A DNA stretch of 64,000 nt from Amoebophrya sp. A120 (taxonomy: Eukaryota > Protista > Dinoflagellata): the NCBI GenBank assembly GCA_905178155.1, contig CAJINV010000028.1, positions 231,235-295,234 on the forward strand, written 5' to 3'. Position numbers and translations under genes: made by a program. Below, in pieces: positions 14,921-57,920 of this stretch. Positions within the stretch are counted from its first letter, which is position 1; each line of letters opens with the position of its first letter. The notes beneath the pieces are model-generated. The model was given only the letters and a program-made list of their open reading frames with translations. It was not told the origin of the DNA and made no database searches.

Positions 14921-17900
14921 TTACTTGCTGCCACCTTTCTTCTTCGTTGCTGGTTTTTTCACAATTACCACCTTCTTCACCTTGTTCGCGGGTTTTTCTT
15001 TCTCATTCCGCACCGTGACCTTCGTCTTCGACCCCGCTAGCAGCTTCATCGCAGCTGTTTTTTTCTTGTCCATCTTCATCGGCTTCTTGCCCTGCTTCTC
15101 CATCGCCATCGGCTTGTTACCCTGCTTCCGCCCTGCTGGTACCTGATCCATGATGTGATTGGGTTAGAATTTGCTATATCGTGGTGGCGCGAACACAAAC
15201 TTCCTCCCAAATCCCCAGAGCGCTGGCGCCCCTCGACGGCTGCCAGCTTTCCTTCCCTTCGTATGTTCTCAAAAGGTCACACCCTTCACAGTGGTGGCTG
15301 GAACTACGGCTCTGTATAAGTAAAAGCGTATCTGCGCTGGTTCGCAGCGTCTTGCGTAATACTAGATACAGCAGCGAGGCGTACAGCAGGGACCGCGCCG
15401 CGACGTCCGCGCCACAGAGGTGGCTGCGGGCGTCGCACTTGTCCGCCCACAGACGTGGATCGAACCGTGCTGCAACACTGCAACGAGAGGTCGCAGCGCC
15501 GGGTGCAACAGAGGCTGCAACAAGTCCCGGAGCCTCCCCAACAGAGGTCGCTAGCGGGCAGTGGTGGGCCACCACGTCGCCGGAAGAAGAGGCTGCGAGC
15601 CTGCTAGATTCTACATATTCGCGTCATAGACGTCAGGATGTGTCTTGCTAGTGTGTGAACATAAAAAAGGGTGAGCAACAAGCTGCGCATGCTTCCTAGC
15701 ATGCGCGCGTCATCTTCTCCTCCCGCTCCAGGTCGTGCATCGATATCGGTGTGGGCGTTGGCTGTGTGTCTGCTGCGCTCCCCCGGCGTCATCCATTTTT
15801 GTAGGCGAGGGCTGGCCACGGGAGAACAAAAATGGGACCACAGAGGTGGTTAGCCCGTTCCGGCCCTCACGAGATTCGCGCTGGTGCTGCGCGACCTAGT
15901 CCTATTTGTGATGCCTCGAATGCGATGTCTGGAGTGCGTTGCTTAGATTGAGAATGAACTAGGTACCTTGTGGGCGGCAGGAGCGCACTTCTTGCCCTGC
16001 TTCTTCATCACCACCGGCTTGCTACCCTGCTTCCGCCCTGTTGGTACCTGATTGAGTCATTTCATTTCGATGCGATTTGTTGTGCTGATTTCTACAAACG
16101 ATCTTTCGGCGGAACACAAATCTTCCACAAAGCCCGCTGCTGGGGTGGTCGGGACCGCCGGAGTGCCTGCAATAATTTCTGTGCTTTCTGGTGAGTCATA
16201 CCCTCCACAATGGCCAGAAAAGGTCCGGGTCTGTAGCGTTCGCAAGTTCCAGTTTTCAAAACGTGTTCTATAGCAGCGAGGCACGCAGCGAGGGCCACAC
16301 CGGGACGCCCGTGCCACAGAGGTGGCAGCGAGGCGCCCCCCCGCCCGGCCACAGAGGTGGCCCGGGCCGTGCTCCAGTGCTCCACGGAGGTGGTCACACC
16401 GGGTGCAGCAGAGGCTGCATCAAATCCAAGATCGCGTGACTTTCGTCCTGGTTGTGGGTCGGCTTGACCCGCGCTCCGATCGCCCAGGGCGGAACCTGGA
16501 CCACATCAGATGGTGGCCCCCCCATCTCGGTCCTCACGAGGTTGCGCGCCCGCATGCTGACTGCGTAACCTAGAATGTGATGACCTAAATGCGTTAACCT
16601 AGGTACCTGGCTGGCGGCAGGAGCGCCCGGCGCACGTTTCTTCATCGCCATCGGCTTGGTAACCTGCTTCTTCATCGGCGTTGTACCCTGGTGCTTCTTC
16701 ATCTTCGTCGGCTCTGAATCATCATCTACATGCACCACTTTTTTGGAAGCCTGCACCTTGGCCTCGGGTTTCTGGTTGGCGAGAGTCTTCTCGCACTGGA
16801 CGGCAGCGTCCTGCAGCTGGTCGCGCGAAAGAAGCATACCTTTCGCAGACCCCTTGTCCTCCAGAGACTCCAGGCTCTCCGTAGGAACGCCAGCGGGGGG
16901 CCACTGCAATCGCTGCTCCGAACGGCCCGACATGTTGCACGCCCGTGGCTTGACCTGCCTGCAAAAGAGAGCGAAGGTCTTGACCTCACCGCAGGTCTTC
17001 TCCCCTGCGCCACACTTGTCGTCCTTGTTCTTCACATACTTCGCAGCACAAAGCATAAACGCATTCCAGCAGTCAGCGATAGAAACGTCCGCCCTTTTGA
17101 TTTGCCTCTGTGAACCGACGCCCGGCGGCCCGTTGGGGGCGCGAAGCTGGATTTTCCTGCCAATCTGCACCTTGTTCTGCATCATGCGAACGCTTTTAGC
17201 GGTGGCAATCACGTCACCGCTGGTGTCGCACTTCAGCACGAATTCCACATCGTGCTCAGCATCTTTGCCCTCATTTGACTTCTTTTTGTTGCCCGGTAAG
17301 ATTTGTTGAGACAGCGGCGGCGCGGCCGGTCGTTTCTCGGACAGTTTTTCCTGCATTGCAGCGATCCGCTCCGTCTCCTCTCCCAAAAGCTTTCGGTGGA
17401 AATGCGGGGTATCAAATGCAAAAGTGTCTGGGTCTGGAAGATTCTGAGACATGTCACGCAAGTTTTGCATTGAATTGAATTGAAGTTGAAGTAGCGACGC
17501 CCCATGATGTCTGTGATGCATGCCCTAGCATCGGAGATTTTTTGAGGGCTTCTCGATGCCTATTCCGCATGACGAACGCCCTCTTCCCGTAGCAAAGATC
17601 ACAAGCCCGTTGCTGCTCATGCAATACAGATTTTCTTTGGAATCCAAATGCAGCATCACAAGTTGCATCCTTCCAAACCCAGACATTTTTGCATTTGATA
17701 AGGATCCCCGGAGAACAGCACCTCAGCAGTCTCCGCCGCTTTCTCGGTCATGGATGCGTCATCAATATAGTAGTAATCCCTGTTTTTAGGGTTTGCGTGA
17801 TTCAGCAGATTCACCCCTTCGGCTACCGGGCGCAGCTTCGCCATCTGCTCCGGACTTAGGCCCTCCACAAGGCTGGCATAACTATGCCGCATGCTGTTTG

Positions 17901-19439
17901 CTGTCAGGTTTTTCAGTTTCGAGCGGACCGCGTCGTCCATTTTTTCACCGAAAAGTACAAGCCCGTCTCTCGCCTTCTTCAGGGCTTTATTGAAGCCCGC
18001 CACTTTCAAATGTTGCTTAGTTTCCTTGTTGTGAAAAACGTAGCGAGCGTTGGGAACTTTAGCAAGGAGCTTTTCGATCACAGACGCAAGCAGAGCACTG
18101 CAATCGTTTCCAATTTTCTTGATGCCTCTCGCGTGGTACAACCTCTTCTCCTTTTTTATGGCGTTTTCAGCTTTTACATTCTCAACTGCTACATGAATTT
18201 GTGCTGCTAAACCTACCGAAGCCACAAACGCAATCCATACGGCACCTTTCCGCAGATGGTCAGGCCACCGGGTCGCGGAGTCAGGCGGACCGAAGCCGTC
18301 GCCATCACACTCGGGCACCTCCAACTTTTTACGCCGACTTCTTCTTACTTTCGGTTTCGCCAACAAACCAACTATATCGCCAACATGCGTTTCAGGTTCG
18401 CCAACCTGCCTTACTTCTATCTCGCCAACAGGTGCGTTTATTTGTTCGCCAAAAAATCCTACTTTTCGCCAACAAATCCAACTTTTTGCCACCAAGTCCA
18501 ACTTTTCGCCAACAGAATACGGTTAACGTTCGCCAACGATCCATACTTTGTGCCAACAATGCGTTTTCCGTTCGCCAACGATCCATACTTTGCACCAACA
18601 GGTGCGTTTAAGTTTAACGTTTGCCAACGGTCCTTACATTACGCCAACAGGTGCGCTTCGAAAATTTGTCATGCTAAGCACCTTAATCAAGTGGAGGCTG
18701 TTGGCAAGTTTGCACGAAAAATTCGTGTAACAGTTGAGAATGAAACAGTTGAGAATGCCATATTTTTGGTTGTCTTTTTGTGCTCATTTTTTCTGCGCAC
18801 TATTCGAATGAACCCATTTTGTAGGTCGAGGAACTCCGGGCTTAAGGGCAAGCGCACAACGTCTCCGAGATTGTCACCTGTCTGGAAGGCTATCATGCAG
18901 GCCAGTATCCTCTGGAAAAAAACGCGTCCAGCCTGCGGTCGACATCCTGGAATTTCACTAACAGCGCAAACGCGCGACCTTTGCGAGGCAGGAATGTTGA
19001 CTAATATCGGTCTGCAGCGTAGTGCTGACGACTTAGAGACAGAGAGCACAGCTGTATTTGCAAAAAACATAGCTCCTGTGAGTTGAGCATTACTTATTTG
19101 TATTTCGAGTTCCGAAAACGCATGGAAAACAACGAATCGGGGATCTATTGAAAATGATGTTCCTTCCTGCTACTTATTGCAAATTACCATGACCACAGCT
19201 CTAAAAACAAGTTGGCGGCCGGGTGCAGCGTTTTCACAGAGGATAGCAAGCCGCCAATGGTCCTCGGTAAACCGGTCAAGCAACTCCTGCCATTTTTCCC
19301 GCGGTATCTTCGTTCGTGGCTCAGCTCCTGGCGGACTGTCATCCTCGGCAAACTCGACGGGTCGCAACAGACTTTCCTGCTTTGGCCGCTTCATCGGCTT
19401 CGTCTCTTTCTTCACCTCGACCTGTCGTCGTGGGGGCAT
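14921..19439 (-). CDS. Tyrosine recombinase (lambda-integrase-like) domain protein with substituted catalytic Arg and His and a Lys-rich tail, ~650 aa
   Basis: After removing introners 18157-18762 and 17410-17700: IAFQTGDNLGDVVRL..DLQNGFIRIVRRKN..YVF..FNKALKKAR..LTANSMRHSYAS..LLNHANPKNRDYYYIDD matches the YR box I/box II layout; GT-AG introns ~19187-18933, 16606-16048, 15966-15143. Confidence 0.8.
17410..17700. mobile_element. Introner family A in the recombinase gene
   Basis: Near-consensus A TIRs; flanks cgggg/aggat not duplicated, but +5 removal gives SGDPHFHRK. Confidence 0.9.
18157..18762. mobile_element. Introner family J, expanded, splitting the recombinase catalytic domain
   Basis: TATGGCGTTTTCAGC...GTTGAGAATGCCATA; TSD ttttt/ttttt; removal gives KKTTKKEKRLYHARG. 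Confidence 0.9.
18350..18660 (+). repeat. Array of ~15 (T)TCGCCAAC motifs at ~20-22 bp period
   Basis: Read directly, e.g. gttcgccaacgatccatactttg x2, cgccaacaggtgcg x2. Confidence 0.85.
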
Positions 19440-20946
19440 GGTTTCTGCTACTTACGAGTCCGTCGTGCTCGTTGAGTTTGGGGATGCACAAGGTGCTTTG
19501 CGACAGAAATCTGCTCGGCTGCTGTGCAGGCGTGCCTAAATTGTGAATGCTGGTGCCACAAGTGTTCGTGCAAGACTTCGTGGTCGTGGCCGTGGTCGTC
19601 GTCGATTTTAAATATGACGCTATGTGATGAACTAGCTTCCAACTGTTAGTTTCCGCAGGACTACTTGCTTGTGAGTGTGAATTCAGTCCGCAAATTTTCG
19701 GGTATGAAGAACAGGTATGTACAGCGCCACCGTGCTGCAAGAAATATCCGCTTTTGGATCAGTAAAGTAATATGACTATAAAATGCATGAAATGCTATTA
19801 CTTCTAGGCTGCAACTATGACGTAAACTTCTACTACGGGACAAAATGCTATACGCACTATTTTTGATTTTTTTTCAGAGCAATGAATTCTTCCTACAATT
19901 GAATTATTTCCACGCAACCATGGTTGTCACCACGAAAATGGCCACCAGGCCAAACCACGAACCATGAATACCCCAAAACTAATGTCTCCCGTCGTGCTCC
20001 AGGGGACCACTCTTCATTCTCAGCAGCAATATCGAATAAGCACAAGACGCAGTACTTTATTTCCAAAACCTTCTTACAATTCCCAGCTCTTCAACATCAT
20101 CTCTTCCTTCATCGCAAAAGCATCATTCCAGCACAACGTTGTCACATCAAAACGATTCACATTTCTATAAACGATTCACATTTCTTTCACATCATCTTCT
20201 CTTCCATCGTTGCACAATCATGATTCATCTAGCACAAGATTATTTTCGTCGCACGACGACTTCCAGTCTTATCTTCACATCAACTTTCGTTCGTTGCCTT
20301 CGTTCTCGTCATCACATCATTGTCTTTGTCTCGAGCAACTTGTAGAGGCAGTGACTCTCGTCCCACCGCCGAACTTACAACAAATAGCGATGAAGATTTC
20401 ATTCGTTCTTCTTGTACATCCCGGCTTTAAGCATCATCTTGGCAGCACGGAGGAGAACACACATGAAGAAGTTGCAGCGCCAAGTGGCCACGAATACAGG
20501 CACAATTCTTGGCGCTGGTGTATTTCAATTCTACTTTTCGTTATCATCTGCACACGAAAAAGCGTTGCTTGCTACGGTTGTTCGCTATATTTAAAGTAGT
20601 AGTTCCTAAATTGCGTTCTTGCAGGTGGTTCGCTAAATATGTACTGGCAGTTTTATCTTCCTCCAGGCACTCTCACTTTCGTATATAGCACGATTACGAG
20701 CGCGTGACCCTCTTCCGTTTTTGCAATTGCAAAAAAATAGAAGAGCCTTTTACCACGAGAGGGTGACAAGGTGGGGATGGAGCTAAAGCCAGGGTGTACA
20801 AATTAGGCGCGACAGAATTTGCGATTATTGTCTACTTTGGAACTTCTTCGCACCAAAGAAGCATACGTACAAGGATATTGTCCCCGATGATAACAAACCT
20901 CTAGTCTCCCGTTCTTTCGGCTACGCGAAAAGTTCACTGGAGCCAT

Positions 20947-26600: not shown

Positions 26601-29509
26601 TGCTGTAAACAAAACTGTGTAGGTGATTCTTGCACAGCAAAACGAAAGAGAATTTTATCTTTTTTTTCGCATAGTATTTCGACTTACCCGGGGAATTTTG
26701 AGCATTGTGCAGTCATCTCGGGACTCCGCGTCTGGGACGTCAACAGGTCCGTCTAGCCTATCCAGCAAAAACCATGAGTCGGGGTCAGCGACACTGCAAG
26801 CATTCAGTTGCTGCATTCGAAGTGGAGATCTACATTCAGTCGCTACAGCGGCTTCGTCCTCGGGTCGTCAAGATCAGGAACATATACTTGACAAAATTAA
26901 GTTTAAGAAGGCGCTATTTATTACTTGCGTGCGTTGTGTACGTATTGAGAAAAATTGAATTCATGCGAAGAAAATTTTTCATGCGACAATTACATGCGGT
27001 TTCCGTTTGATATGAAAATACATGGAAAGCGAAAAGCAAAACAAAATTGATCTTCGTTGTTCTGAGGTCCATAGTATACTTGGTTGATAGTCTCTGACCT
27101 CAACGGCGTGTCTGCGGCGGATAAAGCTGCGCAAACAGCCACTTCATGTACTGTCTGAGGGTACGCCGCCGCGCGCGATCACCTAATCGAAATTTTCATT
27201 CGCATTTGCTACAGTTCAAATTTACTCCATGAGAATTATGTCCATCAGCATGCACTCAATATCAATGGACGCGTTGTAAAAGAGATGAACTGACCGATCT
27301 TTCTTACATAGCCTAACTGACCGATCTTTCTTGCGTCGCCTGCAACCGTACAACTGCAAGTGAAGTGGAGCAATATTATAGGTAAATGTACTTACTACAA
27401 TCTACTACAACGTGGAAAACTTTTATACCAGTAAAGACCGCTACGTTTCCAATGTACTGCAACAGGCAGCCGCTGGCTTTTTCCAGCTTCCTCCTGGTGG
27501 CGCCGTTCTTTCCGAGCGCAAAGGAGAGCTGCGAGTCGTCTGAGAAGGGCATGACACCGCTCCGCCAATTCTCTCCGTCTTCGTCGCGGGCGAGAATTTC
27601 CGCTCGGTGCTTTTCGAAGTACCCCGCGCACTTCGACTCGATAGCGGACAGCACCTTCAGCTCTGCGCCGCGACGGTTGCGCCGATCCGCACCGAAAATG
27701 GCCAGTCGCTCCATCTCCTTGGTCATGCGACCGTCCTTATGGACAGAGAAAAGTTTGTCAAAGTCACTAACACTATCTTGCAGGTTTTGCATGAGAAATT
27801 TTTGGCATCACAACTTTTTTCTTGTATTCAGCAGAAGCACAAGGTAAATCGTGTATGAAATGCGACTGTGATGCATGTTGATGCATGACGGATGCCATTT
27901 GTGTTGCAAGATTGCCGATGAGTGATCGTGACGAACTTTTTTTCTTTGATAGTCCTTCTTGCCGTTGTAATCAGCGAAGAACATCAAGACCGATATGCAA
28001 GAAAAGAACTGTGTAAGTGTAAATTTGTGTTGCAGAAGATGCAACAGAGTTACACCTGTCATGCCAGACAGCCATGAAGTCCTCTTTTCGTGTGTATTTC
28101 CCCTGACAAACCATGCATGGCAGGTTTTCTCTGTCATGTAGAACAAATTTGTGATGCTGTTCCTCAAAGAAAGTTACACTTACACACTTTTTTTCCTGGA
28201 TAACCGACCACTCGTCTTCGATGGTACGCAGAAAGTTTCCGCCGCGCCCGGTGACAAACCCGCAGGCGTCGTTCGGAACGTCCAGCAGGGTCAGGTCTCC
28301 GTCATCGTGCGACTCGCGCTCCACGAGGACCGGCCCGACCCGCTGCGCCGTCAGAAACTTGGAGTACTTCATCGCACGGTCCACCTGCGTATCCTTAGTA
28401 AAAACGTCCCCACCCCATGGTCAAGATGGGGATCTCGCAACACAAATCGCGAAGTTTTGGGAGTCAAGCATGACAAGTTCCTCTCTGTAGTGTGGTGCAG
28501 TTTAGCAAGTACAGCCGCAACACAAATCCATCTAGTCATTCTGTTTACAGCATTACAAAGTGCAAAATACGATGGGAAATGCCTCTAATGGGGATGCGCA
28601 TTACAAATCCTCCTATAACTGCAAATCTGCATGACAAGTATGGGGTGGGGACGTTTTTACCCAGCGTACTGTGCTTGGGTTCCTTTCGCCTGCAGAACGA
28701 GGTCGTCCATGCTGAGTGATGCCACCCCCGAGGCATTGGCGATCTTCACTTTCGTCTTGCCGTTCCGCCCCAGCACGAACGCCGCGTCGTTGTTGCTCAA
28801 TTTCAGAGTACATGACACGGTTTCCTCGGCCTTTTCTTCTCCTTTTCCGTCGCCGGACTTTGTCTTTTTCGGTTTGTATCCAAGGGAAAAATGTTGTTTG
28901 ATGTCACAGGAGGGGACTTCTTGGAAATGCGAAGGTTCTGCTTTTTGAGATGGTTGAGTTCTACGTGAATGGGGATCAGGTTTACGGGTGAAGATGCATC
29001 TCCATGCGGGAAGTATCACCAATAGTTTTGCGAAGTTACATTCAAATACATCATCGTTTGGACCAGCAGTAGACCATGAAGCCATAAATTAAGTACTTGT
29101 AAATAAAGGTGCGAGAAATCCTTACACTGCTATTCCAAATTCATCTGGTTCTTCGAGCCGAAGCTTTAATATTTCGAGTTTCAGTTTCGATTTCAACCGA
29201 ATTCCAAAAGAGTTGCAACGAACAGCAAGATCAACAAGGTCGTGGTCCCAATTTCTGCAACTGCTTTTTCATGTATTCCTTTGCGCCCCTGACGAAACAT
29301 CAAACCTACTTTTTTCTGGAGGGTAGCGACCTCGAACGACGGTCGGAACCGGCGCTGCGCTCTCGGATGGGAGAGTTGGATTTTCCGCGCGAGGAGGACG
29401 ACCTCCGGTTGCGCCGCACCGAACGCTGCCGTTTGGATTTACGCTCTTTCGCTTTCCGAGAGGAGTCCCCGGACCGGGAGCGGGAGGTCGAAGAATCGCG
29501 ACCCGACAT
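23626..29509 (-). CDS. Multi-KH-domain RNA-binding protein (6 KH GxxG loops) with N- and C-terminal RS-rich regions; 10 introners plus GT-AG introns
   Basis: KH loops VLGRNGK, VTGRGGN, ALGKNGA, ITGSRRA, CLGQGGS, VTGKHGN; RS ends MSGRDSSTSRSRS..RSRSP and ..RSRRRDSRRR*; all introner junctions in frame. Confidence 0.9.
24169..24494. mobile_element. Highly degenerate introner
   Basis: TATCAAAATCAA...TTATCAAATGCATA; flanks 3/5 match; +5 removal gives LARDPKTDVERLLVFG. Confidence 0.6.
24548..24826. mobile_element. Introner family B (young)
   Basis: TATCCTGAGTAAAAAGGTACCCACACCAGAG...CTCTGGTGTGGGTACGTTCTTACTCAGGATA; TSD agctc/agctc; inverted near-copy of 41781-42059. Confidence 0.95.
24974..25189. 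mobile_element. Degenerate introner
   Basis: TATCCTGTTG...CGCAGTGGATA; internal GCATCACAA/GCATGACAAA; +5 removal preserves KH helix spacing. Confidence 0.65.
25769..26074. mobile_element. Introner family H
   Basis: TATGAAAGCC..GG.TGGA.AT.CTCAAAGT TIR at both ends; TSD cttgc/cttgc. Confidence 0.9.
26139..26361. mobile_element. Introner family G
   Basis: TATGAGAATGCACAACTCCC...GGGAGTTGTGCACTGTCATA; TSD tgata/tgata. Confidence 0.9.
26759..27123. mobile_element. Highly degenerate introner
   Basis: TATCCAGC...GCGGATA; flanks tagcc/aagct; +5 removal gives KWLFAQLDGPVDVPD. Confidence 0.6.
27738..27951. mobile_element. Introner family E
   Basis: TATGGACAGAGAAAAGTTTGTCA...TGACGAACTTTTTTTCTTTGATA; TSD gtcct/gtcct. 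Confidence 0.9.
27994..28202. mobile_element. Introner family E
   Basis: TATGCAAGAAAAG..TGTGTAAGTGT...ACACTTACACA..TTTTCCTGGATA; TSD accga/accga. Confidence 0.9.
28390..28668. mobile_element. Introner family B
   Basis: B TIRs; TSD ctgcg/ctgtg; removal gives GTQAQVDRAMKY. Confidence 0.9.
28877..29325. mobile_element. Degenerate E-like introner
   Basis: TATCCAAGGGAAAAATGTTGTTTGATG vs reverse complement of the other end TACCCTCCAGAAAAAAGTAGGTTTGATG; +5 removal gives RSRSPKKTKS. Confidence 0.65.
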
Positions 29510-30816: not shown

Positions 30817-31884
30817 TCACAGCCAAGAAAAGATCAGGTCCGCGTTTTCCTTCAGTTTGTTGTAGCAGGCGCGGTTCAGCGAAATGCCCTTTTTTCCCGG
30901 TCTTTTCTCGTGTTCCCCGGCCTTGTCGGTGCCGTCGTAGAACTCCCGTAGATCGACGAGCTTGTTGCCCTTGAAGATGTTGTAGGTAACGCGCTTGGCG
31001 CCCCCGAGCTCGCGGAATTTCCCAGCGGTCTCGTTGGTTTCGAGCCAGTCGTCGATATCCGGAAAGAACTCCATCAGCTTCTCAAAGTCCCGTTTGTTCA
31101 GGGTGAGTCCCTTCCTACCCGGTTTCATTTCCCCGGTGCTGCTATCCAGGTAGTACTCGCGCACGTTGATGAACACCCGGTTTTTGTACTGCGAAAACGA
31201 GGCTCGTTTGCCATTACCCAGCTCCACAACCTTGTTTTCATTTTCTGCGGGGGCCTGCTCTTCGGGTTGTTGTAGTTCATCCCCAAACGCGGCGGCGGCG
31301 GCGGCACCTGCAAGAAGTTGTACATCTGGCAGCTCCACGAGCTTATTTTCATGCTCGTCCTTGTCCTCTTTAAACAACGCATCTAGCTCCGCGTCCAGCT
31401 GATCATAAACAGGACCACCTCCGGCGGCAGCAGCACCTGCAAATGAGATGAAGTGAGTAGATTGATTGATTGTATATTTTCACTTCTTGTTTCCGAACAA
31501 TCATGAGTGAAAGTTGCCTTGCACAACAAAAGAAGCTCACCCGCCGTCGTTATATTTTTTTGCGCGAAAGCACAAGCAGGACGTGGCAGATCTCGAAGCA
31601 TGAACGATCAGAACAATTTTAGCGCCATGAATACAACAGCCGGACATGACCACGACACTTCTCTTATAGAGGACTCGTAAAAAATGCTTAGTACCATTGC
31701 CATGGCTCTCCCCGGCTGCGCCAGCTTCTTCCGCATTTTTAGGCCCATTTTTCACCTTCACGGGAAGGTCTTCTTCCGGAAGTAGCTGCTGTTCCATTTT
31801 CACCGCAACAGGGGCTGCCTTTTCTGCCCCGGCGTCGTCCTCCGGAAGCTGTTCAATTTTGACTTTCTTGCGTCGAGGCGCCAT
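30817..31884 (-). CDS. SUB1: PC4/Sub1-family ssDNA-binding transcriptional coactivator with two PC4 domains (conventional introns, no introner)
   Basis: KRASFSQYKNRVFINVREYY..MKPGRKGLTL and KRVTYNIFKGNKLVDLREFY..KRPGKKGISL; probable first exon MAPRRKKVK at 31884. Confidence 0.9.
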
Positions 31885-40200: not shown

Positions 40201-43200
40201 GTGATGCTCCTGAGCTAGCTCAAACAGCACTACAATACGAGTCCAAATTTGTCATGCAAAACAGCCAAAACTTGTGGATTTGTGTAGCCGATTCCCCATC
40301 TTGACTATGGTGTGGGTACGTTTTTACTCAGGATAGTTCGCTTTCGCACTGCTGGTCGTTCTCCGTTTCGTCACTTCGCTATCACCTGCAAAAATGTCTG
40401 GGTCTGGAAGAATGAAAGTTTCAGTTTGTCATGCTTGTCTGGCATGACTCGAGAATCTGTGCTGCATAGGCACGACAAGGCCCTCTTGGTTGTCATGCCA
40501 AAACGCAGTTTGCCATGCGGAATATATAAGACATGGCAGCCAACACATTTGTCATGCGTAGCTGCGTACTGCAATGCGTTTTTCATTCACTTTTAGCATT
40601 ACAAGTTTCCAGACCCAGACATTTTTGCATTTGATATTCGCCCGAGGAAGGCAAATCTTCTTTCACCGTGCTCTTGCGCTTCAAGTTCAACTTGGAAGAA
40701 GCTTCCAGCGCGGCCGGCTTCGCGCCACTAACCTCGTACTTGTCCTTGGCGATTCCCTTGCTGGAGGTGCCTGACTCCTTCCCAGTGGCCTGGTAGTATT
40801 TGAAGAATTTGGACATGGAACATATTTTTTTAGTAGAACAAGTAAAAATATAACCCTGATGTCTGTCGTGTGGTAAAAGCTACAACTACATAACGCCGCG
40901 GGCGGAAGTTCAGCTTTCGCTTCAGAAAGAAAAGCAAAAGAATCAATCTGGTATAATTCCCATGAGCTGCTCGTGCTCGTAACAAAATTGTTTTATACTT
41001 TGGCTTCCTTTCCTTTCTTGCCCTTCGTAACCGTTGGTGTTGGTTTTTCATTTTTCATTTGATTCTCCTCCAAATCCAGCTCCAGCAGGGTTTTTTTCGC
41101 CGCTTTTTTCCCGATCGCGTCTTCAGAGGAGGTGGTCTTGGTGTCGTTTCTCTTCTTCCCCAGGGCCGCGGAGGTACAACTAGAGCTCTTAGTTCTACTA
41201 ATACCGCCGCCAGTACTCTTTCTAGAAGCGGCAGCGGTTTGTTTCACTGCCACCTCTGTTTTCGACGATTGCTTTGTCGCTTTTCCGCCCGCAATACCTC
41301 CTGCAAGAGGCGTGCTAGAGCCTCTTGCGCCAGACTTTGCTTCCCGTTCCGGTTTGGCCTCTTCGGCAGCAAGAAACGCCTCGAGGACTTTTTCCTTGTT
41401 GGTAGTAGATTTCGATTTTTTGGATCGCGATTGCATCAACATGTCAGCGCCCTTTTTTAGTTCCATCTGGTCTCCCCCGATAGACCTCTGCTCAAGGTGA
41501 TCGTGCTATCCTGAGAAAAAACGTACCCACACCAGAGTCAGGATGGGGAATCTGCTAGACAAATCAGCCAGCTTTGGTTGTTTGGCATGACAAGTTTGTC
41601 CGCGTAGTGTAGTGCTGTTTGAGCTAGTTTAGCAGCATTACAGATCTAGTATCTCGTGCTGATTGGAGCATGACAACTATGGTGTGGGTACGTTTTTACT
41701 CAGGATACGTGCTCCAGCTTGCTCATCTTCGAGTTGTTGGCGGTCATGCTTCGTGGTCGTTTTATCACGTTGCCCGAGGATATCCTGAGTAAAAACGTAC
41801 CCACACCAGAGTCAGGATGAGGATTTTGCAACACAAACCTAGGAGTTTTGTGAGTCACGCATGACAAGCTGCACTACGCAGTGTAGTGCAGGTTAGCAAG
41901 TGCAGCCGCATCACAGATTCGTCTGCTCATCCTGTTCACAGCATCACAAATTCCAAAACACGATGGGAAATGGCTCTCATGGGGATGCGCATTACAAGTC
42001 TTCCTATCTTTGCAAATCTGCATTACAACTCTGGGGTGGGGACGTTTTTACTCAGGATAGAGGAGACCGGTGATTCTTCATTCCCCGTGGTCGTGGTCGT
42101 GACCATATTAAGAGGAAAAATCCCCCCTCCCCACATCGCAAAGGTATGCTTCCGAAAATTTGTGTTGCTGATTTGAGACCACAAATCGCCTCTGTCTTGC
42201 AAGGAGGCAACTCCACAAGCTCCGCAGCATTGCGCAGGCGGTTTGTGATGCTGACGGGCCTCCAGTACGGACGTTCCTCATGCTAGACGCCTAGGCCAAA
42301 ACCTCTCTACTTAGGCTTAGTATGGGCCTGCATTTCTCTCCAGCAAGACAGATCTGATTTGTGTACGCAAATCCTGCATCAGAAACTTCGTTTCGATATG
42401 GGGAGGGGAGATTTTTCTTTTTGATAGACCATCACGGTGCCCGAGGTGGTCATTCTCCTTGGTCGCTTTTGTTCACCAACGAGCACGGTGGCTTGTTCAA
42501 ACGGGTGCTTTTCGTTGGCCTCGAAAGTGGAAACTGACCTCTTCGAATTCTTCGTTCCGCTGGCCGCGGCACTGGTGGACTATCAAATGTAAAAATGTCT
42601 GGGTCTGGAAGAGTCCATGTTTGTCATGCGTGTCTGGCACGACTCGCAAATCTGTCATGCACGTTACCCAAGAGCGCCACTTTTCCGTCATGCAGAAACG
42701 CAGTTTGTCATGCAGAATACAATAGGCAACACCTAGAAGCTCAGAAACTTCTCATGCTGAGCCAGCACTTGTGGCTTCCTCATGATATGCCACCCAGCAT
42801 CACAAGTTTCCAGACCCAGACATTTTTACATTTGGTATTCTCCGTGGTCGTTTTATCACGTTGCCTGAGGAGCCCGGGTTTTGTTCACCTCCACCGAGCA
42901 CGGTGGCTTGTTCAAGCGGGTGCTTTTCGTTGGCCTCGAAAGTGGAAACTGACTTCTTCGAATTCTTCATTCCGCTGGCCGCGGCACTGGTGGACTATCA
43001 AATGGAAAAATGTCTGGGTCTGGAAGATGTGTCCATGTTTGTCATGCGTGTCTGGCACGACTCGCAAATCTGTCATGCACGTTCTTACCCAAGAGCGCCA
43101 CTTTTCCGTCATGCAGAAACGCAGTTTGTCATGCAGGATACAATAGGCAACACCTAGAAGCTCAGAAGCTTCTCATGCTGAGCCAGCACTTGTGGCATCC

Positions 43201-46200
43201 TCATGATATGCCACGACCCAGCATCACAAGTTTCCAGACCCAGACATTTTTACATTTGGTATTCTCCGTGGCCGTTTTATCACGTTGCCCGAGGAGCCCG
43301 AGTTTTGTTCACCTCCAACAACTACGGTGGCTTCAAGCGGGTGCTTTTCGTTGGCCTCGAAAGTGGAAACTGACCTCTTCGAATTCTTCTTTCCGCTGGC
43401 CGCGGCGCTGGTGGACGAAGACTGTATCACCGGCTCTATTCTAGCAACAGACGCCTCCGCCTCGCGGCCCTTTTTGCTGGTGGATTTCGATTTTGATTTC
43501 GCTCGCCTCAAGTCAGTATCCTGCTGCTGTTCTTCATCCGCGAAGATGGGGAAGAGCTGCTCATTGCCGTTCTGTTCCAGCACCACGGCCGTGCTCGCTT
43601 TCGAGCTGTATCAACTGGAAAATGTCTGGGTCTGGAAGAATCCAACTTGTTATGCTGATTTTGGATTCTAAAAAAATCTGTATTGCATGAGCAGCAAAGA
43701 GAGTCCAAGTTTTGCTACACGGAAAGAGCATTTGTCATGCGGCATAGGCATCAGGAAGCCCTCACAAAATCTGTGATGCTAGGGCATGCATCACAGACAT
43801 CAGGAGTCATGCAAAATGTGCATGACAAACCTGGCAATCTTCCAGACCCAGACATTTTTACTTTTGATAAGCTGTTGTAGTTGTTCATTTTCCGTTTCAT
43901 CGCTTTGCCGGAGGAGGCGAGCACGTCCTCTGCATCGAGCGCGTTGTAGTACTTTTCGTTGGCGGCGTCAACAGCGGAGACTGACGCCTTCGATTCCCTC
44001 TTTTTTCCACTGGCCGCGCCGGCGCCGATGGACTTCCTGGCCTGCTTGGATTTGGAAGCTGATGCGCCTTTGCTTCCATTGGTATCGTTCCCCAATCCCA
44101 CCGTGCTCTTGCGCTTGGAAAAAACTTCGAGGCCGGCCGCCTCCGCGGGAACAGCGTCCTCCTCGTGCGTGAGTTTTGCCTTGCTGGCGGTGGCTGACTT
44201 GTTGTCGGTGGCCTGGTAGTATAATTTTGACATTAATCATTGGAACATCAAGTAAAAACTGCGCAGTGTGTACTGTGGCAAAAGCCGAGGAAAGTTGAAG
44301 CTCATCTTTCGGTTTACATTTACAAAAAGAAATAAGAGCGTCATATTACGTGAAGATCGTGCTGCTCGTAACGAATTTGCACTTACCTTCTTTCCCTTCT
44401 CTACTTTGCCGCTCGGATTTGAGGGTTTTTGATTCTCCAAACCCTCCTGGCGCTGTGTTTTTTTTCTGAATTGCAAAAATGTCTGGGTCTGGAAGATTCT
44501 CAGATTTGTCATGCATGTTCTGCATGGCCCAGGATGTCTGTGATGCGCGACCGCGCATCACAGGTTTTGACCTGGCTTCCTGATGCCTACTCCGCATGAC
44601 AAACGCCCTCCCCGCGTAGCACAAACTAGACTCCTCTTGCTGGTCATCCAATACAGATTTTTGTTTTTCTAGAGTCCAAAGTTAGCATCACAAGTTCCAA
44701 TCTCGCAGACCCAGACATTTTTACAGTTGATATTTTTCTGTTCGCTTTTATCTTCCTCCTGTGTCACTTTTAATATTGCGGAACTTTTTCTGCCTTGTTT
44801 CGAGGACTTGGCTGCTGCACCCGTTCCGCTGGCCGCGGCACTGGTGCACGAAGACTGTATCACTGGCTTGGAAGTTGTGTTTTTGTTTCCATTGTTGTCG
44901 CTCACTCCAGTCGTGTTTCTGCGCTTGGGCTCGGGAGAAACTTCGGTGTCGGCAAGCTCCGCGGCAAATAGAGCCTCCTGCCCGTGTTCCGCTTTTGCCT
45001 TACTGGAGCTGGCGGACTCCTTGCTGGTGGCGGCGGTGGACTAGTAGTATTTTAATTCAGACGTCATTTGATGGAACAAGGAAAAACTACGATATGCGTA
45101 TAAATGTAGTGCTGGCAGAACGGATTTTTACATCGCGCTGGGTTCTTACATTCTCATTCAGCCTTTGCTTTACAAAAAGAATAGAAAATAACGCGGGGTC
45201 TTTTGCTGGTACTGACGAGTAATAAATAAATAAATACTTTCTTATCTTGCTTCCGATTGCCCTTCGGGTCTGACGATTTTTGACCCTCCAAATGGTCCCC
45301 CTGGTCCTCGTGCAGCTGCGCATTATTTCTGTGCTTGCTTCTACCTCGTGCGGAAGGTTCAGCCTGCACGGCCGTGGTTGTTGAATTTCTTTGCTTTCTG
45401 CTAGAAGAAGAAGCTGCATTGTTGGCGGAGGTATTGACTTTGCAATCTTCCTCCGGTGTCGCTTTTGCACAACTTTTTCTGCCTTGTCTCGAGGACTTGG
45501 CTGCTGCACTTTTGCAGCATTTCTTTATCTCGTTCCTCTTCGGCATCCTTCTTGCTTGAAACTTTTATTACGTCAGTTAGGAAATAGCAATACGTGTGTC
45601 GCTTGTAGGTCGTGATTGCTGTATCAGTCGAAATTGTAAACGATTCTGCACCTAGCAGTTGCAATGATTGTGATTCTTACAAAAAGTTAACATAATTAAT
45701 AGCTGTCTTTCACCGTGATACTTTTTTTCTTCCTAATTTTGATTGTGTCATACTAGGAAAAGGTTGAGTTGATGTAATGTCGTTTGTCTAGCTGACAAAA
45801 AAAACGCAAAAATGTGGATCGTGTTCGCCGGTTCCCGCCGACAAGATGCTTCTCCAAAAAGCTCCAATGTTGACATCATGCCCCACGTGAGGGATCGATT
45901 TGTGTGAGACACTTCTTCATCAAAAACAACTCGCCTGGTTCGTACCCAGAAATTGTCTGCGGTGCGGCACAACAAGAAAGCGGAACAAAGCGCAACATCC
46001 TTCACGATCTTTCTATCAGCGGAACAAAAAACAACATCCTTTCTGAAAATGAGAAACTGATGTGATCTTCTATCTTCACCGCCTTCAGCTCAAAAACAAA
46101 CCAAAGAGCAGAGCAATCACAAAGAAATGATCATCGTGATTCACGAACTCGTGCTGACAAACGTGCGTGCATAAGGATAGGAACTTCGAACATCTGACAG

Positions 46201-52701: not shown

Positions 52702-55644
52702 TCAGTCAGAAAGACCGGCTGCGCGACGGATGACCCGCTGAGCCTTTTTCGCCAACTCCTTCTGGTGCTTCGTGGGTTTCTTGGCGTACTGTTTGATCAC
52801 GAGCTTCTGCTGGCGGTTCGGAATCGACACCGCAATTTTCTTGCCGGACGCGGACATGAGAGGCCACAGGCCAAAGAGTTCTTCCAACGGAGGCGCAGTG
52901 AGGCTCTTGTCGAGGGGCTGAAGATTTGGTCCGCCCTGGGTTATCAAATGTAAAAATGTCTGGGTCTGGAAGAGGAGAAGTTTGTCATGCACATTTTCCA
53001 TGATCCATGATGTCTGTGATGTATGCCATAGCATTACAGATCTTTTGAGCGCCTATCGATGCGCATCCTGCATGACAAATGCCCTGTCCGCGTAGCCAAA
53101 TTTGACTCCTCTTGCTGCTCATGCAATACAGATTTTTTTAGCATCCAAATGCAGCATCACAAGTTTGGCTCTTCCAGACCCAGAAATATTTGCATTTGAT
53201 ATGGGTGGCCGCCACATCAGTGGAACGCAGGTAGTGGTGCGCCTCCACGGTCTGGTATCTCTTGGTCACCTTTCAAACGAAAAAATGTCTGGGTCTGGAA
53301 GAATGCATGTTTGTCATGCTCGTCTGGCGTGACTCTTAAATCTGTCATGCACGTTACCCAAGAGCTCCATTTTTCTGTGATGCAGAAACGCAGTTTGTCA
53401 TGCAGAATAGGCAACACCTAGAAGCTCAGAAACTTGTCATGCTGAGTCAGCACTTGTGGCCCCATCATGAGACGCCACCCAGCATCACAAGTTTCATCCA
53501 GACCCAGACATTCTTACATTTGATATCACCTTGCCCAACTTTTTGTTCGTCCTGATCTGGTCCACAATGTCCGCCATATGAAGTGTAAAAATGTCTGGGT
53601 CTGGAAGAATGCAACTTGTGATGCGCATTTCAGAACACACAAAAATCTCTCATGCATAGGTAGCAAAAGCTGCGCACTTTCTGTCACCAAAATGGGGGAT
53701 TTGTCATGCGGGTTCGGCATTGCGGAAGCTTCTCGAAACCTGTGATGCTAGAGCTTCCATGACAGACCTTCTGTGTCATGCAGAAACAGCATGACTCTTC
53801 CAGACCCAGACATTTTTACAGTTGATACGCCAAGCGCGGGCGCGAATGCTGCGGCTGGCCGACACACTCGGAAATCCAGTCTCGCCAGAACTTGGGCATC
53901 CGTATCAAGTGTAAAAATGTCTGGGTCTGGAAACTTGTGATGCTGGGTGGCGTCTCATGATGAGGCCACAAATGCTGGCTCAGCATGACAAGTTCCTCAG
54001 CTTCTAGGTGTTGCCTAATCTGCATGACAAACTGCGTTTCTGCATCACAGAAAAGTGGAGCTCTTGGGTAACGTGCATGAGAGATTTGAGGCTCATGGCA
54101 GACAAGCATGACAAAGATGCACTCTTCCAGACCCAGTCATTTTTGCACTTGATAATCCGCTGGAGGTGCGGAAACCCGGTCCCCACGGCTTTGTCAATCG
54201 ACGTGCGGAAGGCAGTCAAGTGGTGCTGCGTCACGTGTTGGGTGTCAATGTTCTCGACGTAGCGGTCCCACTTGTAGCCCAGGGCGCCTTCCCGCTTACA
54301 GTCGACGGCGTGCCAAATCTGCGCGAGAATCATGCCGACCGCAAACACGTCGTTCTTGATGGTGTCGAAGGTCGGACCTCCGGGAGAGAGAAGCGTCTCC
54401 CACGTTTTATCACAAGAAAAAAGTGTTACAGGTACACACTTGTTGGAGTTTCTGCATCACAAACTTTCGCTGTGTGGCAGGGAAACCTTGTAATGCGAAG
54501 ATCATGAGGGAAAACAGGAAGGAAACGAGGCTCCCAAGCATTTCCTGCATGAGAAAGGTTATCTGTGTTGCCGGTCTTGCAACAAAATGTTTAACTGTAA
54601 GACTTTTTTCTTGCGATACATTTCCGGGCTTCCGTAGTACAACGTGCCGGCGGCACACTTCGAAGCTTTCGTGTTTTGCTTGCCCCAAGTTGCTATCCCT
54701 TGCAAATGTGTCTGCGTCTGGAATGTTGCCGGGTTTGTCATGCATGTTTTGCATGGCCGAGGATGTCTGTAATGCACGACCTAGCATCACAGATCTTTAG
54801 AGGGCTTCCTGATGCCGACTCCGCATGACAAATGCCCTCCCCGCGTAGCACAAACTAGACTCCTCTTGCTGGTCATGCAATACAGACTTTTTTAGAGTCC
54901 AAAGTCAGCATCACAAGTTCCAACCCTCCAGACCCAGACATTTTTGCATTTGATAGTTGCGCATCCCCAGTCGACCAGTTTTAAATGCCTGGATCTGCTC
55001 TCGACCAGGATGTTCTCCGGTTTCAAGTCCCCGTGCGAAATACCGTGCTGCTTATGCAACAAGGCCACACTCTCCACTAATTCACAGCTCCACTGCATCG
55101 CCATGTCCACCGGCATGTACTCCTCGTCGACTTCGAGCCACTTCTCGAGAGTCTTTCCCTCTACCGTATCAATTCTCAACCCAACTGTGACTTTCGCGAG
55201 CTGAGACGCCGCAGTCTTGATCGCATTGTTCTCTTCGTCCTCTTCGGGCGGCACCGGTAGCACAGGCTGCTCGTCCGCTTTTTTGGAAGAGGATGCCGCA
55301 CCGGACATCAGTGCGGAGTCATCCGTAGAGATGTTGCGCGCCTCCATGTCGTCGTGGTCTTCAGTGTCGGCCTTTGGCACTGGGGCAGCAGCGGATTTCT
55401 TCATCACTTTCTTTAGCGGCGGAGGGACCTCCTCCGCGGCCGCACCTTCGATCAAGGCAGAGGACAAGGGGGCAATCAAGTCGATCACGTCCGGCTGCGC
55501 GCTCAGGTACTCCAAAACCACCCGCTCTACGTACGCGTGTGCGCGGTGTGGCAGGCTCGTGAGCAGGTCTGCCGCGCGGTAGAACTTCCATCCGCCCTTT
55601 CTCTCCGTGGTGAAAGTCGCGAATGCGCCCTTTTTCGCTGACAT
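52702..55644 (-). CDS. Ser/Thr protein kinase (divergent) with 6 introners
   Basis: KKGAFATF..WKFY..VERVVLEYL..HGDLKPENILV..LKLVDWGCATW..AGTLYYGSPEMW..NDVFAVGMILAQI..WISECVGQPQHSRP; continuous only after removing six elements +5 nt each. Confidence 0.92.
52942..53201. mobile_element. Introner family A
   Basis: A TIRs; TSD tgggt/tgggt. Confidence 0.95.
53271..53525. mobile_element. Introner family A
   Basis: A TIRs; TSD tcacc/tcacc. Confidence 0.95.
53577..53827. mobile_element. Introner family A
   Basis: A TIRs; TSD cgcca/cgcca. Confidence 0.95.
53903..54154. mobile_element. Introner family A (inverted near-copy of 53271-53525)
   Basis: A TIRs; TSD atccg/atccg. Confidence 0.95.
54408..54618. 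mobile_element. Introner family E
   Basis: TATCACAAGAAAAAAGT...ACTTTTTTCTTGCGATA; TSD cgttt/cattt. Confidence 0.9.
54694..54955. mobile_element. Introner family A
   Basis: A TIRs; TSD gttgc/gttgc; interrupts the kinase activation segment. Confidence 0.95.
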
Positions 55645-56429
55645 AGTTTCCAATTATGAACTGTTAAATTTACAACTCTTGGACGAGGACGAAGATGAGT
55701 TGTTCCTTCTTCTGGGCGATCTTGTTTGAAAAGGTGGACACAGTACTAGAAACAGACTCAGATGATGAAAAAACGACAAGAATTTGCGGTGGTTGAAAGA
55801 TGAAAGCCCCTCACTATTTGCATATATTGACGTCAATGACAAGCACATAGGAACGTTTTCTTCTACACTTGTTCTAATCTACTATGGTGTCTGGTTTATT
55901 CCAAAGAAAACTGCGATTGCCAGTTCTACAATACTAGGCACCACCAGAACTTATAGAAGAAGTGCACAAATCCAATCTGGAACTTGATCCGTTTGATGAG
56001 TTTTGCATTTCTCGCTGCGTCAATCAAAGGCAAGAAAGTCGCGGCGAGAAAGCTCCAAATCAAAAAGTCTTGGACGCAACAAGCCGGGCAAATCATGCAC
56101 TATTCGTTTTATTAGTTGCCCGTGCATTCGTGTTGGTGTTCCTCCTGGACGTGCGCATTCTTCCTCCTTCTCACAAAAAATGGCAAGCAACACCAATGAT
56201 CGCGAAACATCAAAACTCATCGATAGATGACGAAGCTCTGCTGATCAAAAGTTCCTTTCTCATGATCGGGGCTACGAACTCTAATGGAGCATGACGCTTC
56301 GTGAAGATTGCGGATCGTCCGGGGTTCTTGATGTGGATGGACATGGATCATTGGATCTTCCTCTACGACATCCTGAAATAAAAGTTGGAACCTAGTCGGC
56401 TGGTTCGGCCACGGGAACTCGCAAGGCAA

Positions 56430-57920
56430 AATCCGCATGTTCTGGGCGGCACAAAAAATCGCTCCTCAGAGCAAAACCTTCTCCTGATCTGATTATTGCT
56501 GCCGCAAGATCCCCAGGAAGATCCCCTGGAGACATTGCGATAGCAATAATTAGGTGCGCGATGCACCGCATTTTCTGGGCCGCCCAAAAAAGCGACTCTG
56601 CGAGCAAAACCTTCTCCCGGTCTAATTTTTGCTGCCGCAAGGTCCCCAGAGGAGCTTGCGGCAGCAATAATTAGGTGCGGGAAGCGCCGATGTTCTGGGC
56701 GGCCCAAAAGATCGGCCCTGCGAGCAAAACCTTCTCCCGGTCTAATTTTTGCTGCCGCAAGGTCCCCAGAGGAGCTTGCGGCAGCAATAATTAGGTGCGG
56801 GAAGCGCCGATGTTCTGGGCGGCCCAAAAGATCGGCCCTGCGAGCAAAACCTTCTCCCGGTCTAATTTTTGCTGCCGCAAGGTCCCCAGAGGAGCTTGCG
56901 GCAGCAATAATTAGGTGCGGGAAGCGCCGATGTTCTGGGCGGCCCAAAAGATCGGCCCTGCGAGCAAAACCTTCTCCCGGTCTAATTTTTGCTGCCGCAA
57001 GGTCCCCAGAGGAGCTTGCGGCAGCAATAATTAGGTGCGGGAAGCGCCGCATGTTCTGGGCGGCCCAAAAGATCGGCCCTGCGAGCAAAACCTTCTCCCG
57101 GTCTAATTTTTGCTGCCGCAAGGTCCCCAGAGGAGCTTGCGGCAGCAATAATTAGGTGCGGGAAGCGCCGATGTTCTGGGCGGCCCAAAAGATCGGCCCT
57201 GCGAGCAAAACCTTCTCCCGGTCTAATTTTTGCTGCCGCAAGGTCCCCAGAGGAGCTTGCGGCAGCAATAATTAGGTGCGGGAAGCGCCGCATGTTCTGG
57301 GCGGCCCAAAAGATCGGCCCTGCGAGCAAAACCTTCTCCCGGTCTAATTTTTGCTGCCGCAAGGTCCCCAGAGGAGCTTGCGGCAGCAATAATTAGGTGC
57401 GGGAAGCGCCGATGTTCTGGGCGGCCCAAAAGATCGGTCCTGCGAGCAAAACCAAAAAGGTCTAATTTTTGCTGCCGCAAGGTCCCCAGAGGAGCTTGCG
57501 GCAGCAATAATCAGGTGCGGGAAGCGCCGCATGTTCTGGACGACCCAAAAGATCGGCCCTGCGAGCAAAACCTTCAACGACCTGCTAAATTTCTGCTATC
57601 ACGAGGCCTTGCGATAGCAATAATTAGCTGGGGGATGTGCCGCATTTTCTGGGCGTTTTCTCGGGAGCTGAAAAAATTGGCTTGTTTGCGAGCAAAACCT
57701 CCGCAGACTTGACTATATTTCTGCTACCACAAGGTACCCAGGGAGGTCCCCTTGGGCACTTGCGGAAGCAATAAATATTTAGGCGCGGGATGCGCCCCTC
57801 TTTCTTGGTGGGCCAAAGAATCGGCTTTGCGAGAAAAGCCTTAACCTGATTGAATTTTTGCGTATCGCAAGGTCCCCGGGCGGGTCCTCTTGGGTCCTTG
57901 CAACAGCCATAATTAGGTGG
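56430..57920. repeat. 120/121-bp tandem satellite with an internal hairpin; ~8 near-identical units plus degenerate flanking units
   Basis: cgagcaaaacc recurs at 56601, 56721, 56841, 56961, 57082, 57202, 57323, 57443, 57562; stem ttgctgccgcaag...cttgcggcagcaa in each unit. Confidence 0.95.

Follow-up and report, generated by a model that had tools for sequence, protein, structure and literature searches.

Tyrosine recombinases (YRs) that no longer recombine and act as regulators are known from animals and yeast (PMC3212892, PMC13465315) and from a phage (PMC10516654). The eukaryotic precedents are the Crypton-derived DUF3504 genes (ZMYM2-4, QRICH1, KCTD1 and WOC), Gcr1 and Cbf2 (PMC3212892, PMC13465315). 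In these host genes the dead YR domain is part of a longer protein, and many of them have transcriptional or chromosomal roles (PMC3212892). In the phage case, MrpR (YopR) of Bacillus phage SPbeta, the first active-site arginine (Arg-I) is lost and Asn stands for the His of the HxxR motif, while the Lys and Tyr are kept, and the protein is a repressor that does not recombine (PMC10516654). In Plasmodium and other Apicomplexa, Pf-Int is a conserved host YR in which the HxxR His is replaced (Y435) and Arg-I is kept (R328; PMC3466309). Here, we describe a gene in a 64,000-nucleotide (nt) stretch of the marine parasitic dinoflagellate Amoebophrya sp. A120 (contig CAJINV010000028.1), called the window, to whose positions all coordinates refer. 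The gene lies on the minus strand (19439..14921), and we give a probability of roughly 0.58 to the reading that it is a spliced host gene whose YR-derived product is likely unable to recombine and is likely a nuclear DNA-binding protein.

The ATG at 19439, the stop codon ending at 14921, the strand and four motifs (TGDNLGDV at residue 72, NSMRH at 196, LLNH at 226 and YYYIDD at 237) are all as the original prediction had them. Six exons, 1884 nt in total, give an open frame of 627 amino acids (aa), and keeping any single intron introduces a stop codon, at residue 90 when intron 1 is kept. The splice joints come from contigs of three presumed RNA runs mapped onto the window (X1, X2 and X3, of which X1 and X2 are one sample), and the five joints within the gene bear out the spliced transcript that had been proposed; they are found among the 15 of 16 joints listed, those outside the five being repeat artefacts. 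Two introners, that is, introns with terminal inverted repeats (TIRs) and short direct repeats that are removed from the RNA, had been predicted, but there are three, the missed one being intron 1. A GT-AG intron at 19187-18912 in place of intron 1 would yield exactly 650 aa, the predicted length; this candidate was rejected, as it fits the YR profile described below more poorly (19.8 vs 22.9 bits) and is absent among the 15 of 16 joints. Contigs of a further run, X5, pass unspliced across the exon-intron boundaries, which is DNA-like behaviour, and an X4 contig covers 19388-19636 without a break. Among the raw-read runs, X8 placed no read on the gene and X7 and X9 matched repeat ends alone, so that these three have no bearing on the gene model. 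RNA-type contigs (19461-19827) reach about 390 nt beyond the start codon on its 5' side, so that the transcript may have a long 5' leader.

A public protein from Amoebophrya sp. A120 is identical to residues 198-627 of the spliced product. It bears out introns 3-5 and begins at the Met within NSMRH, in box II, so that most of the recombinase domain is omitted. The gene is real and is mis-annotated in the public record. Its parts, all on the minus strand, are the following.

19246..19439, minus strand: exon 1, coding part, with the ATG, a low-complexity basic/acidic N-terminus (residues 1-41) and the first YR catalytic helix
18901..19245, minus strand: intron 1, a TIR introner (element 18906-19245); joint 18900>19246 in X1 and X3
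18763..18900, minus strand: exon 2, with YR box I; the Arg-I column is Asn75 (codon 18872-18870), followed by Asp78, and the catalytic Lys column is Lys102
18152..18762, minus strand: intron 2, a TIR introner (element 18157-18762); joint 18151>18763 in X1 and X2
17702..18151, minus strand: exon 3, with the remaining YR catalytic domain, including Asn196 (17898-17896), Arg199, His229 and Tyr238 (17772-17770)
17406..17701, minus strand: intron 3, a TIR introner (element 17410-17700); joint 17405>17702 in X1 and X2, and the same splice in the public protein
16602..17405, minus strand: exon 4, with an unclassified middle region (residues about 261-480) and then the start of the Lys-rich tail
16043..16601, minus strand: intron 4, readable as GT-AG, a paralogue of intron 5; joint 16042>16602 in X2 and X3
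15962..16042, minus strand: exon 5, a duplicated 27-codon Lys-rich unit
15138..15961, minus strand: intron 5, readable as GT-AG, from a tandem duplication of an exon-intron unit; joint 15137>15962 in X1, X2 and X3
14921..15137, minus strand: exon 6, the last part of the Lys-rich tail and the stop codon

By sequence homology, the product is a member of the YR superfamily, as predicted. Exon 3 alone matches the phrog_1 integrase family of PHROG (E 5.1e-6), and in the ESM-Atlas it finds integrase clusters at 0.97, and all 10 of the best hits that carry a name fall into a single family or clan. The spliced protein was aligned with our own profile of 51 bacterial YR catalytic domains (62 loci yielded 57, of which six were removed at >70% identity), over nodes 19-168 of 176 with 22.9 bits; the best of the shuffled controls reached 5.8 bits (798 scored of 1000) and the reversed sequence 4.5 bits, while hhalign gave a probability of 93.8 over 143 columns. 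Pfam, PF00589 included, was not matched by the single exons, and scans of Pfam, NCBIfam, PADLOC and PDB sequences returned nothing meaningful. The proposal that the domain becomes visible only once the introners are removed is therefore too strong, since exon 3 by itself suffices for PHROG, though Pfam yields nothing. In comparison with lambda Int and XerCD-type enzymes (PF00589, phrog_1), box I, the Lys hairpin, box II, His and Tyr follow one another in like order and at like distances, including a His-to-Tyr spacing of 9 that is also that of our profile, and the structural motif columns G73, L82, F150, A203, L227, H229 and Y238 are retained. The differences are Asn in place of Arg-I, of the HxxR His and of the Gly of LGH, the lack of a core-binding domain, the presence of a C-terminal extension of about 370 aa beyond the YR domain and of five introns, and a similarity below Pfam detection.

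The active site was mapped by alignment to the same 51 reference YRs. In the Arg-I column, where 50/51 references have Arg and 0/51 have Asn, the protein has N75 (AAT), and N196 occupies the HxxR His column, which is His in all 51; both substitutions had been correctly predicted. The acidic column is D78, the catalytic Lys column (Lys in 50/51) is K102, the LGH Gly is N228, and the second Arg, the His and the candidate Tyr are kept, as predicted, as R199, H229 and Y238 (Tyr in 50/51). Neither an assembly error nor RNA editing explains the two Asn codons, since DNA and RNA-type contigs agree on them and show no other letter over either codon; the same holds for the whole of exon 2 in the contigs of both types that cover it.

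The two changes differ in meaning. A scan for the NxxRH motif gave 120 viral loci, and with one metagenome locus added the motif is in frame in 116 of 121; the set comprises 114 YRs, 77 of them complete and 15 non-redundant, and Arg-I is kept in 15/15. These sequences form a sizeable clade of phage and bacterial integrases (loci L181:1-765 and L184-L303), whose best named relatives are Akkermansia phage integrases. Furthermore, Cre H289A still recombines, whereas Cre R173A and Flp R191A are reported to bind and synapse without recombining (PMC4381057). Given this natural clade with Arg-I and the active Cre mutant, only the loss of Arg-I indicates inactivity and the His-to-Asn change by itself is no sign of a dead enzyme.

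The N-terminus points in the same direction as the Arg-I column. Only about 41 low-complexity residues, behind an in-frame stop just 5' of the exon 1 ATG, precede the catalytic domain, and they leave no room for an N-terminal core-binding domain. A profile search for such a domain found none, but the same search misses MrpR's own domain and is uninformative alone. Judged from its sequence, the product would thus lack two features of active recombinases, Arg-I and the core-binding domain, and it is because of these two that we argue against recombination. The Cys-containing middle region and the Lys-rich tail that had been described are present. The former has 8 Cys in 210 aa, no detectable motif and no match, for exon 4, in Pfam, PHROG, NCBIfam, PDB sequences or the Atlas; the latter (residues 481-627) is 27% Lys, with a net charge of +36 and an isoelectric point of about 11.

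From these properties we infer nuclear DNA binding: the product would be a domesticated and likely dead YR used as a DNA-binding module, the reuse of dead YRs being a known kind of domestication. The YR domain may still hold on to DNA with its basic face and with K102, R199, H229 and Y238, which are retained; with Arg-I gone, the scissile phosphate would not be stabilised, and for this reason Y238 would not attack it. In place of a core-binding domain, the unclassified middle region could supply affinity together with the tail, which is very basic and resembles histone H1, and the protein could act as a repressor or as a chromatin-architectural factor. The introners would be passengers, inserted after the gene already resided in the host genome.

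Among the described systems, MrpR would be the closest functional analogue, not a relative. The likeness, in which the SroF structure 9rd5 shares, lies in the probable YR fold, the lost Arg-I, the Asn at the HxxR His and the kept Lys and Tyr; the difference is that MrpR is prokaryotic and has a core-binding domain. Kinship was rejected: phmmer gave E 3.7, and the joint position in a tree is a meeting of long branches. DUF3504 genes, Gcr1 and Cbf2 are, like our gene, host genes in which the YR domain lies within a longer protein, and the domain is dead in them and likely dead in ours. The human DUF3504 proteins, however, have lost the Tyr and the second Arg that are kept here; there is no Pfam DUF3504 match in our protein, and the similarity detected is to phage and bacterial integrases.

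The genomic setting is host-like. DNA contig depth over the exons is 25-29, as in the unique flanks, without variant letters, with the caution that contig depth is not copy number. There is no second YR in the 64-kb window, and the gene looks single-copy. The scan of the 34 long open reading frames (ORFs) of the window gave credible matches to KH, PC4 and kinase domains, and none of the 34 matched a viral or reverse transcriptase (RT) family, although split genes can hide. An active mobile element or endogenous virus, such as a Crypton, DIRS or polinton-like virus, has no sign in the window in the form of multiple copies or of RT or viral neighbour genes. The neighbouring host genes, all on the minus strand, are the following.

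30820-31479, minus strand: PC4 coactivator (two domain stretches)
27974-28420, minus strand: RNA-binding protein with a KH domain, Arg/Ser-rich at its end near 23640; the recombinase-like gene lies downstream of it
54895-55653, minus strand: protein kinase

As regards selection, 4 of 15 positions differ in the target duplications of the introners and yet the whole frame is open, for which the probability under neutrality is 0.004 at 8% divergence and 0.28 at 2%; mismatches in the duplications may, in turn, reflect splicing needs instead of introner age. Provided that the introners are old, the open frame therefore points to selection on the whole gene, and together with splicing it favours domestication of the gene as a whole.

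Several points weigh against the main reading of a likely dead, DNA-binding YR. Five of seven active-site positions are kept, more than a long-dead enzyme might retain. The RNA status of X1-X4 is a guess of the tool, the depth of the RNA contigs is low (about 2.5-8), and for introns 2 and 3 the joints stem from one sample. Structure prediction covered exon 3: folded as a single sequence it was unusable, with a predicted local distance difference test score (pLDDT) of 41.6, and the value of 70.8 reached under guidance by the YR alignment is circular, leaning on the alignment supplied. The top nine VIA rows for this guided fold are all YR-fold chains, MrpR and the SroF structure 9rd5 among them, with Z of only 3.5-4.6 and a root-mean-square deviation of 3.5-5.2, and Foldseek gave no significant match with it, so that the support from structure is weak. 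For the YR domain alone, the absence of a stop has a probability under neutrality of 0.24 at 8% divergence and 0.05 at 15%, which is weak evidence. Between the duplicated units of the tail there are five differences, 5/5 non-synonymous, and no purifying selection is seen there. Lastly, no orthologue was found: 5.8 billion proteins were searched three times from word seeds, with exon 3 as the query among longer proteins, with the public protein's residues 1-290, and with exon 3 among proteins of near its own length, and the gene's own public protein was all that these searches returned.

The last two of these points, the low RNA depth and a branch of 3.74 changes per column in a quick tree built without eukaryotic YRs are what one would expect of a transcribed relic, in which a captured YR fragment was fused to a basic protein and is spliced while its YR part is under little or no selection. 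We consider this unlikely: a frame of 627 codons is open and five introns splice in frame in spite of decayed introner duplications, the structural motif columns listed above are kept, and fast divergence is a reported trait of Amoebophrya proteins (PMC7789003).

In the same tree, the query has no supported placement. Scans seeded with patterns, run on metagenome, genome and viral contigs and on 301 genomes of one bacterial phylum, gave no credible relative, nor did tblastn of phages and plasmids; all of these are weak tools for distant kin. Descent from the NxxRH phage clade is unsupported, its profile giving 14.7 bits over nodes 80-143 only, and this quick tree tentatively leaves the query outside it. 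With a branch so long and unplaced, a phage, a virus, a Crypton and an inherited alveolate gene are all candidate sources. A viral donor is plausible because YR-carrying polinton-like viruses are integrated in the genome of Oxyrrhis (PMC12721341). Vertical inheritance of an alveolate YR akin to the Pf-Int of Plasmodium and Toxoplasma, later rearranged and inactivated and not newly captured from a mobile element, is quite unlikely. The sister group Apicomplexa does have such a conserved, host-encoded YR in alveolate parasites with the HxxR His replaced (PMC3466309), and here too the gene looks single-copy in host-gene surroundings; Pf-Int, however, keeps R328 and carries its catalytic domain C-terminally behind a core-binding domain (PMC3466309), whereas ours is N-terminal and has none. 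As a side observation from these searches, loci L083-L114 carry phage lambda int at 99-100% identity in many unrelated bacterial assemblies, often on short contigs, and look like contamination with lambda DNA.

It is decidedly improbable that the product is an atypical active enzyme, with nicking, topoisomerase-like or junction-resolving activity, the part of Arg-I being taken by some other basic residue or by a partner subunit. The columns of D78, K102, R199, H229 and Y238 are the right ones for such an enzyme, and phage integrases that look intact naturally have Asn at the His position. Against this stand the absence of Asn at Arg-I from the reference YRs (0/51 and 0/15), the block reported for the Arg-I mutants of Cre and Flp (PMC4381057), the replacement of the LGH glycine by Asn as well, and the lack of room for a core-binding domain.

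The introners of the gene were examined in their own right. Over the first 30 bases, their terminal inverted repeats are alike at 19, 25 and 28 positions in introns 1, 2 and 3, respectively, and 5-bp target duplications flank them with 1, 0 and 3 mismatches. The element of intron 1 is single-copy in the window; that of intron 2 has 54-nt arms that are 80% complementary, a perfect 5-bp A-run duplication and tandem repeats inside; and that of intron 3 belongs to a family of which the window contains many copies (e.g., 42581-44732, 52942-54955 and 61520-62139), in which the target duplication was perfect in 3/3 other copies examined. TIRs with 5-bp target duplications are the signature of DDE transposases and not of YRs, and they point to a DDE transposase rather than a YR as the mobiliser of these elements. 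The three are ordinary members of the introner elements of Amoebophrya, non-canonical introns with terminal inverted repeats and direct repeats of 3-5 nt at their boundaries (Farhat et al. 2021; PMC7789003), and A120 introners have been attributed to TIR, long terminal repeat (LTR) and non-LTR elements (PMC12130899). A role of the recombinase-like protein in moving introners is unlikely, and the gene is a mere target of three unrelated introners, as are neighbouring genes. Introns 4 and 5 are paralogues that arose by tandem duplication within the tail; 493 nt align between them, at 78% identity. The same 7-8 nt repeat bounds both (15138-16601), and a stretch within intron 5 (about 15800-15990) recurs at other places in the genome, one contig continuing into introner-3-like sequence. 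Elsewhere in the window, an inverted repeat at 53306-54119 with arms of about 190 nt is apparently made of two adjoining introner copies in opposite orientation, and a tandem array at 56490-57510, whose units of about 120 bp contain inverted repeats, overlaps a minus-strand open frame of 262 aa.

A factor of introner biology that binds TIRs in order to mobilise, repress or help remove the elements is scarcely credible: YRs do recognise inverted repeats and the A120 mobiliser is reported as unidentified, no transposase having been found in the genome (PMC7789003), but the repeats and duplications are of the DDE type, three unrelated introners disrupt this very gene as others do its neighbours, A120 introners have been attributed to TIR, LTR and non-LTR elements (PMC12130899), and nothing connects the protein to the introner repeats, in agreement with the original prediction, which had called any such role speculative.

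The literature consulted held no report of a dead recombinase acting as a regulator in dinoflagellates, with the proviso that the supplements of PMC7789003 and PMC12130899 could list YR-bearing elements of A120. The public gene model, which begins inside box II, indicates that introner-split genes in A120 can hide domains from annotation, and reports of A120 as lacking transposases or recombinases merit a new search on RNA-guided models. Dinoflagellates have recruited viral proteins for their chromatin before, and for this reason a DNA-binding protein that is basic and derives from an integrase is a candidate, open to testing, for a further such recruitment. It is very improbable, on what we have, that in an early-branching dinoflagellate a phage-type integrase became a chromatin protein that reads sequence and has a histone-H1-like tail, and that may recognise introners by their inverted-repeat ends and so control their spread or removal; if true, it would be a second virus-derived DNA-binding protein beside DVNP, in a genome that has tens of thousands of introners.

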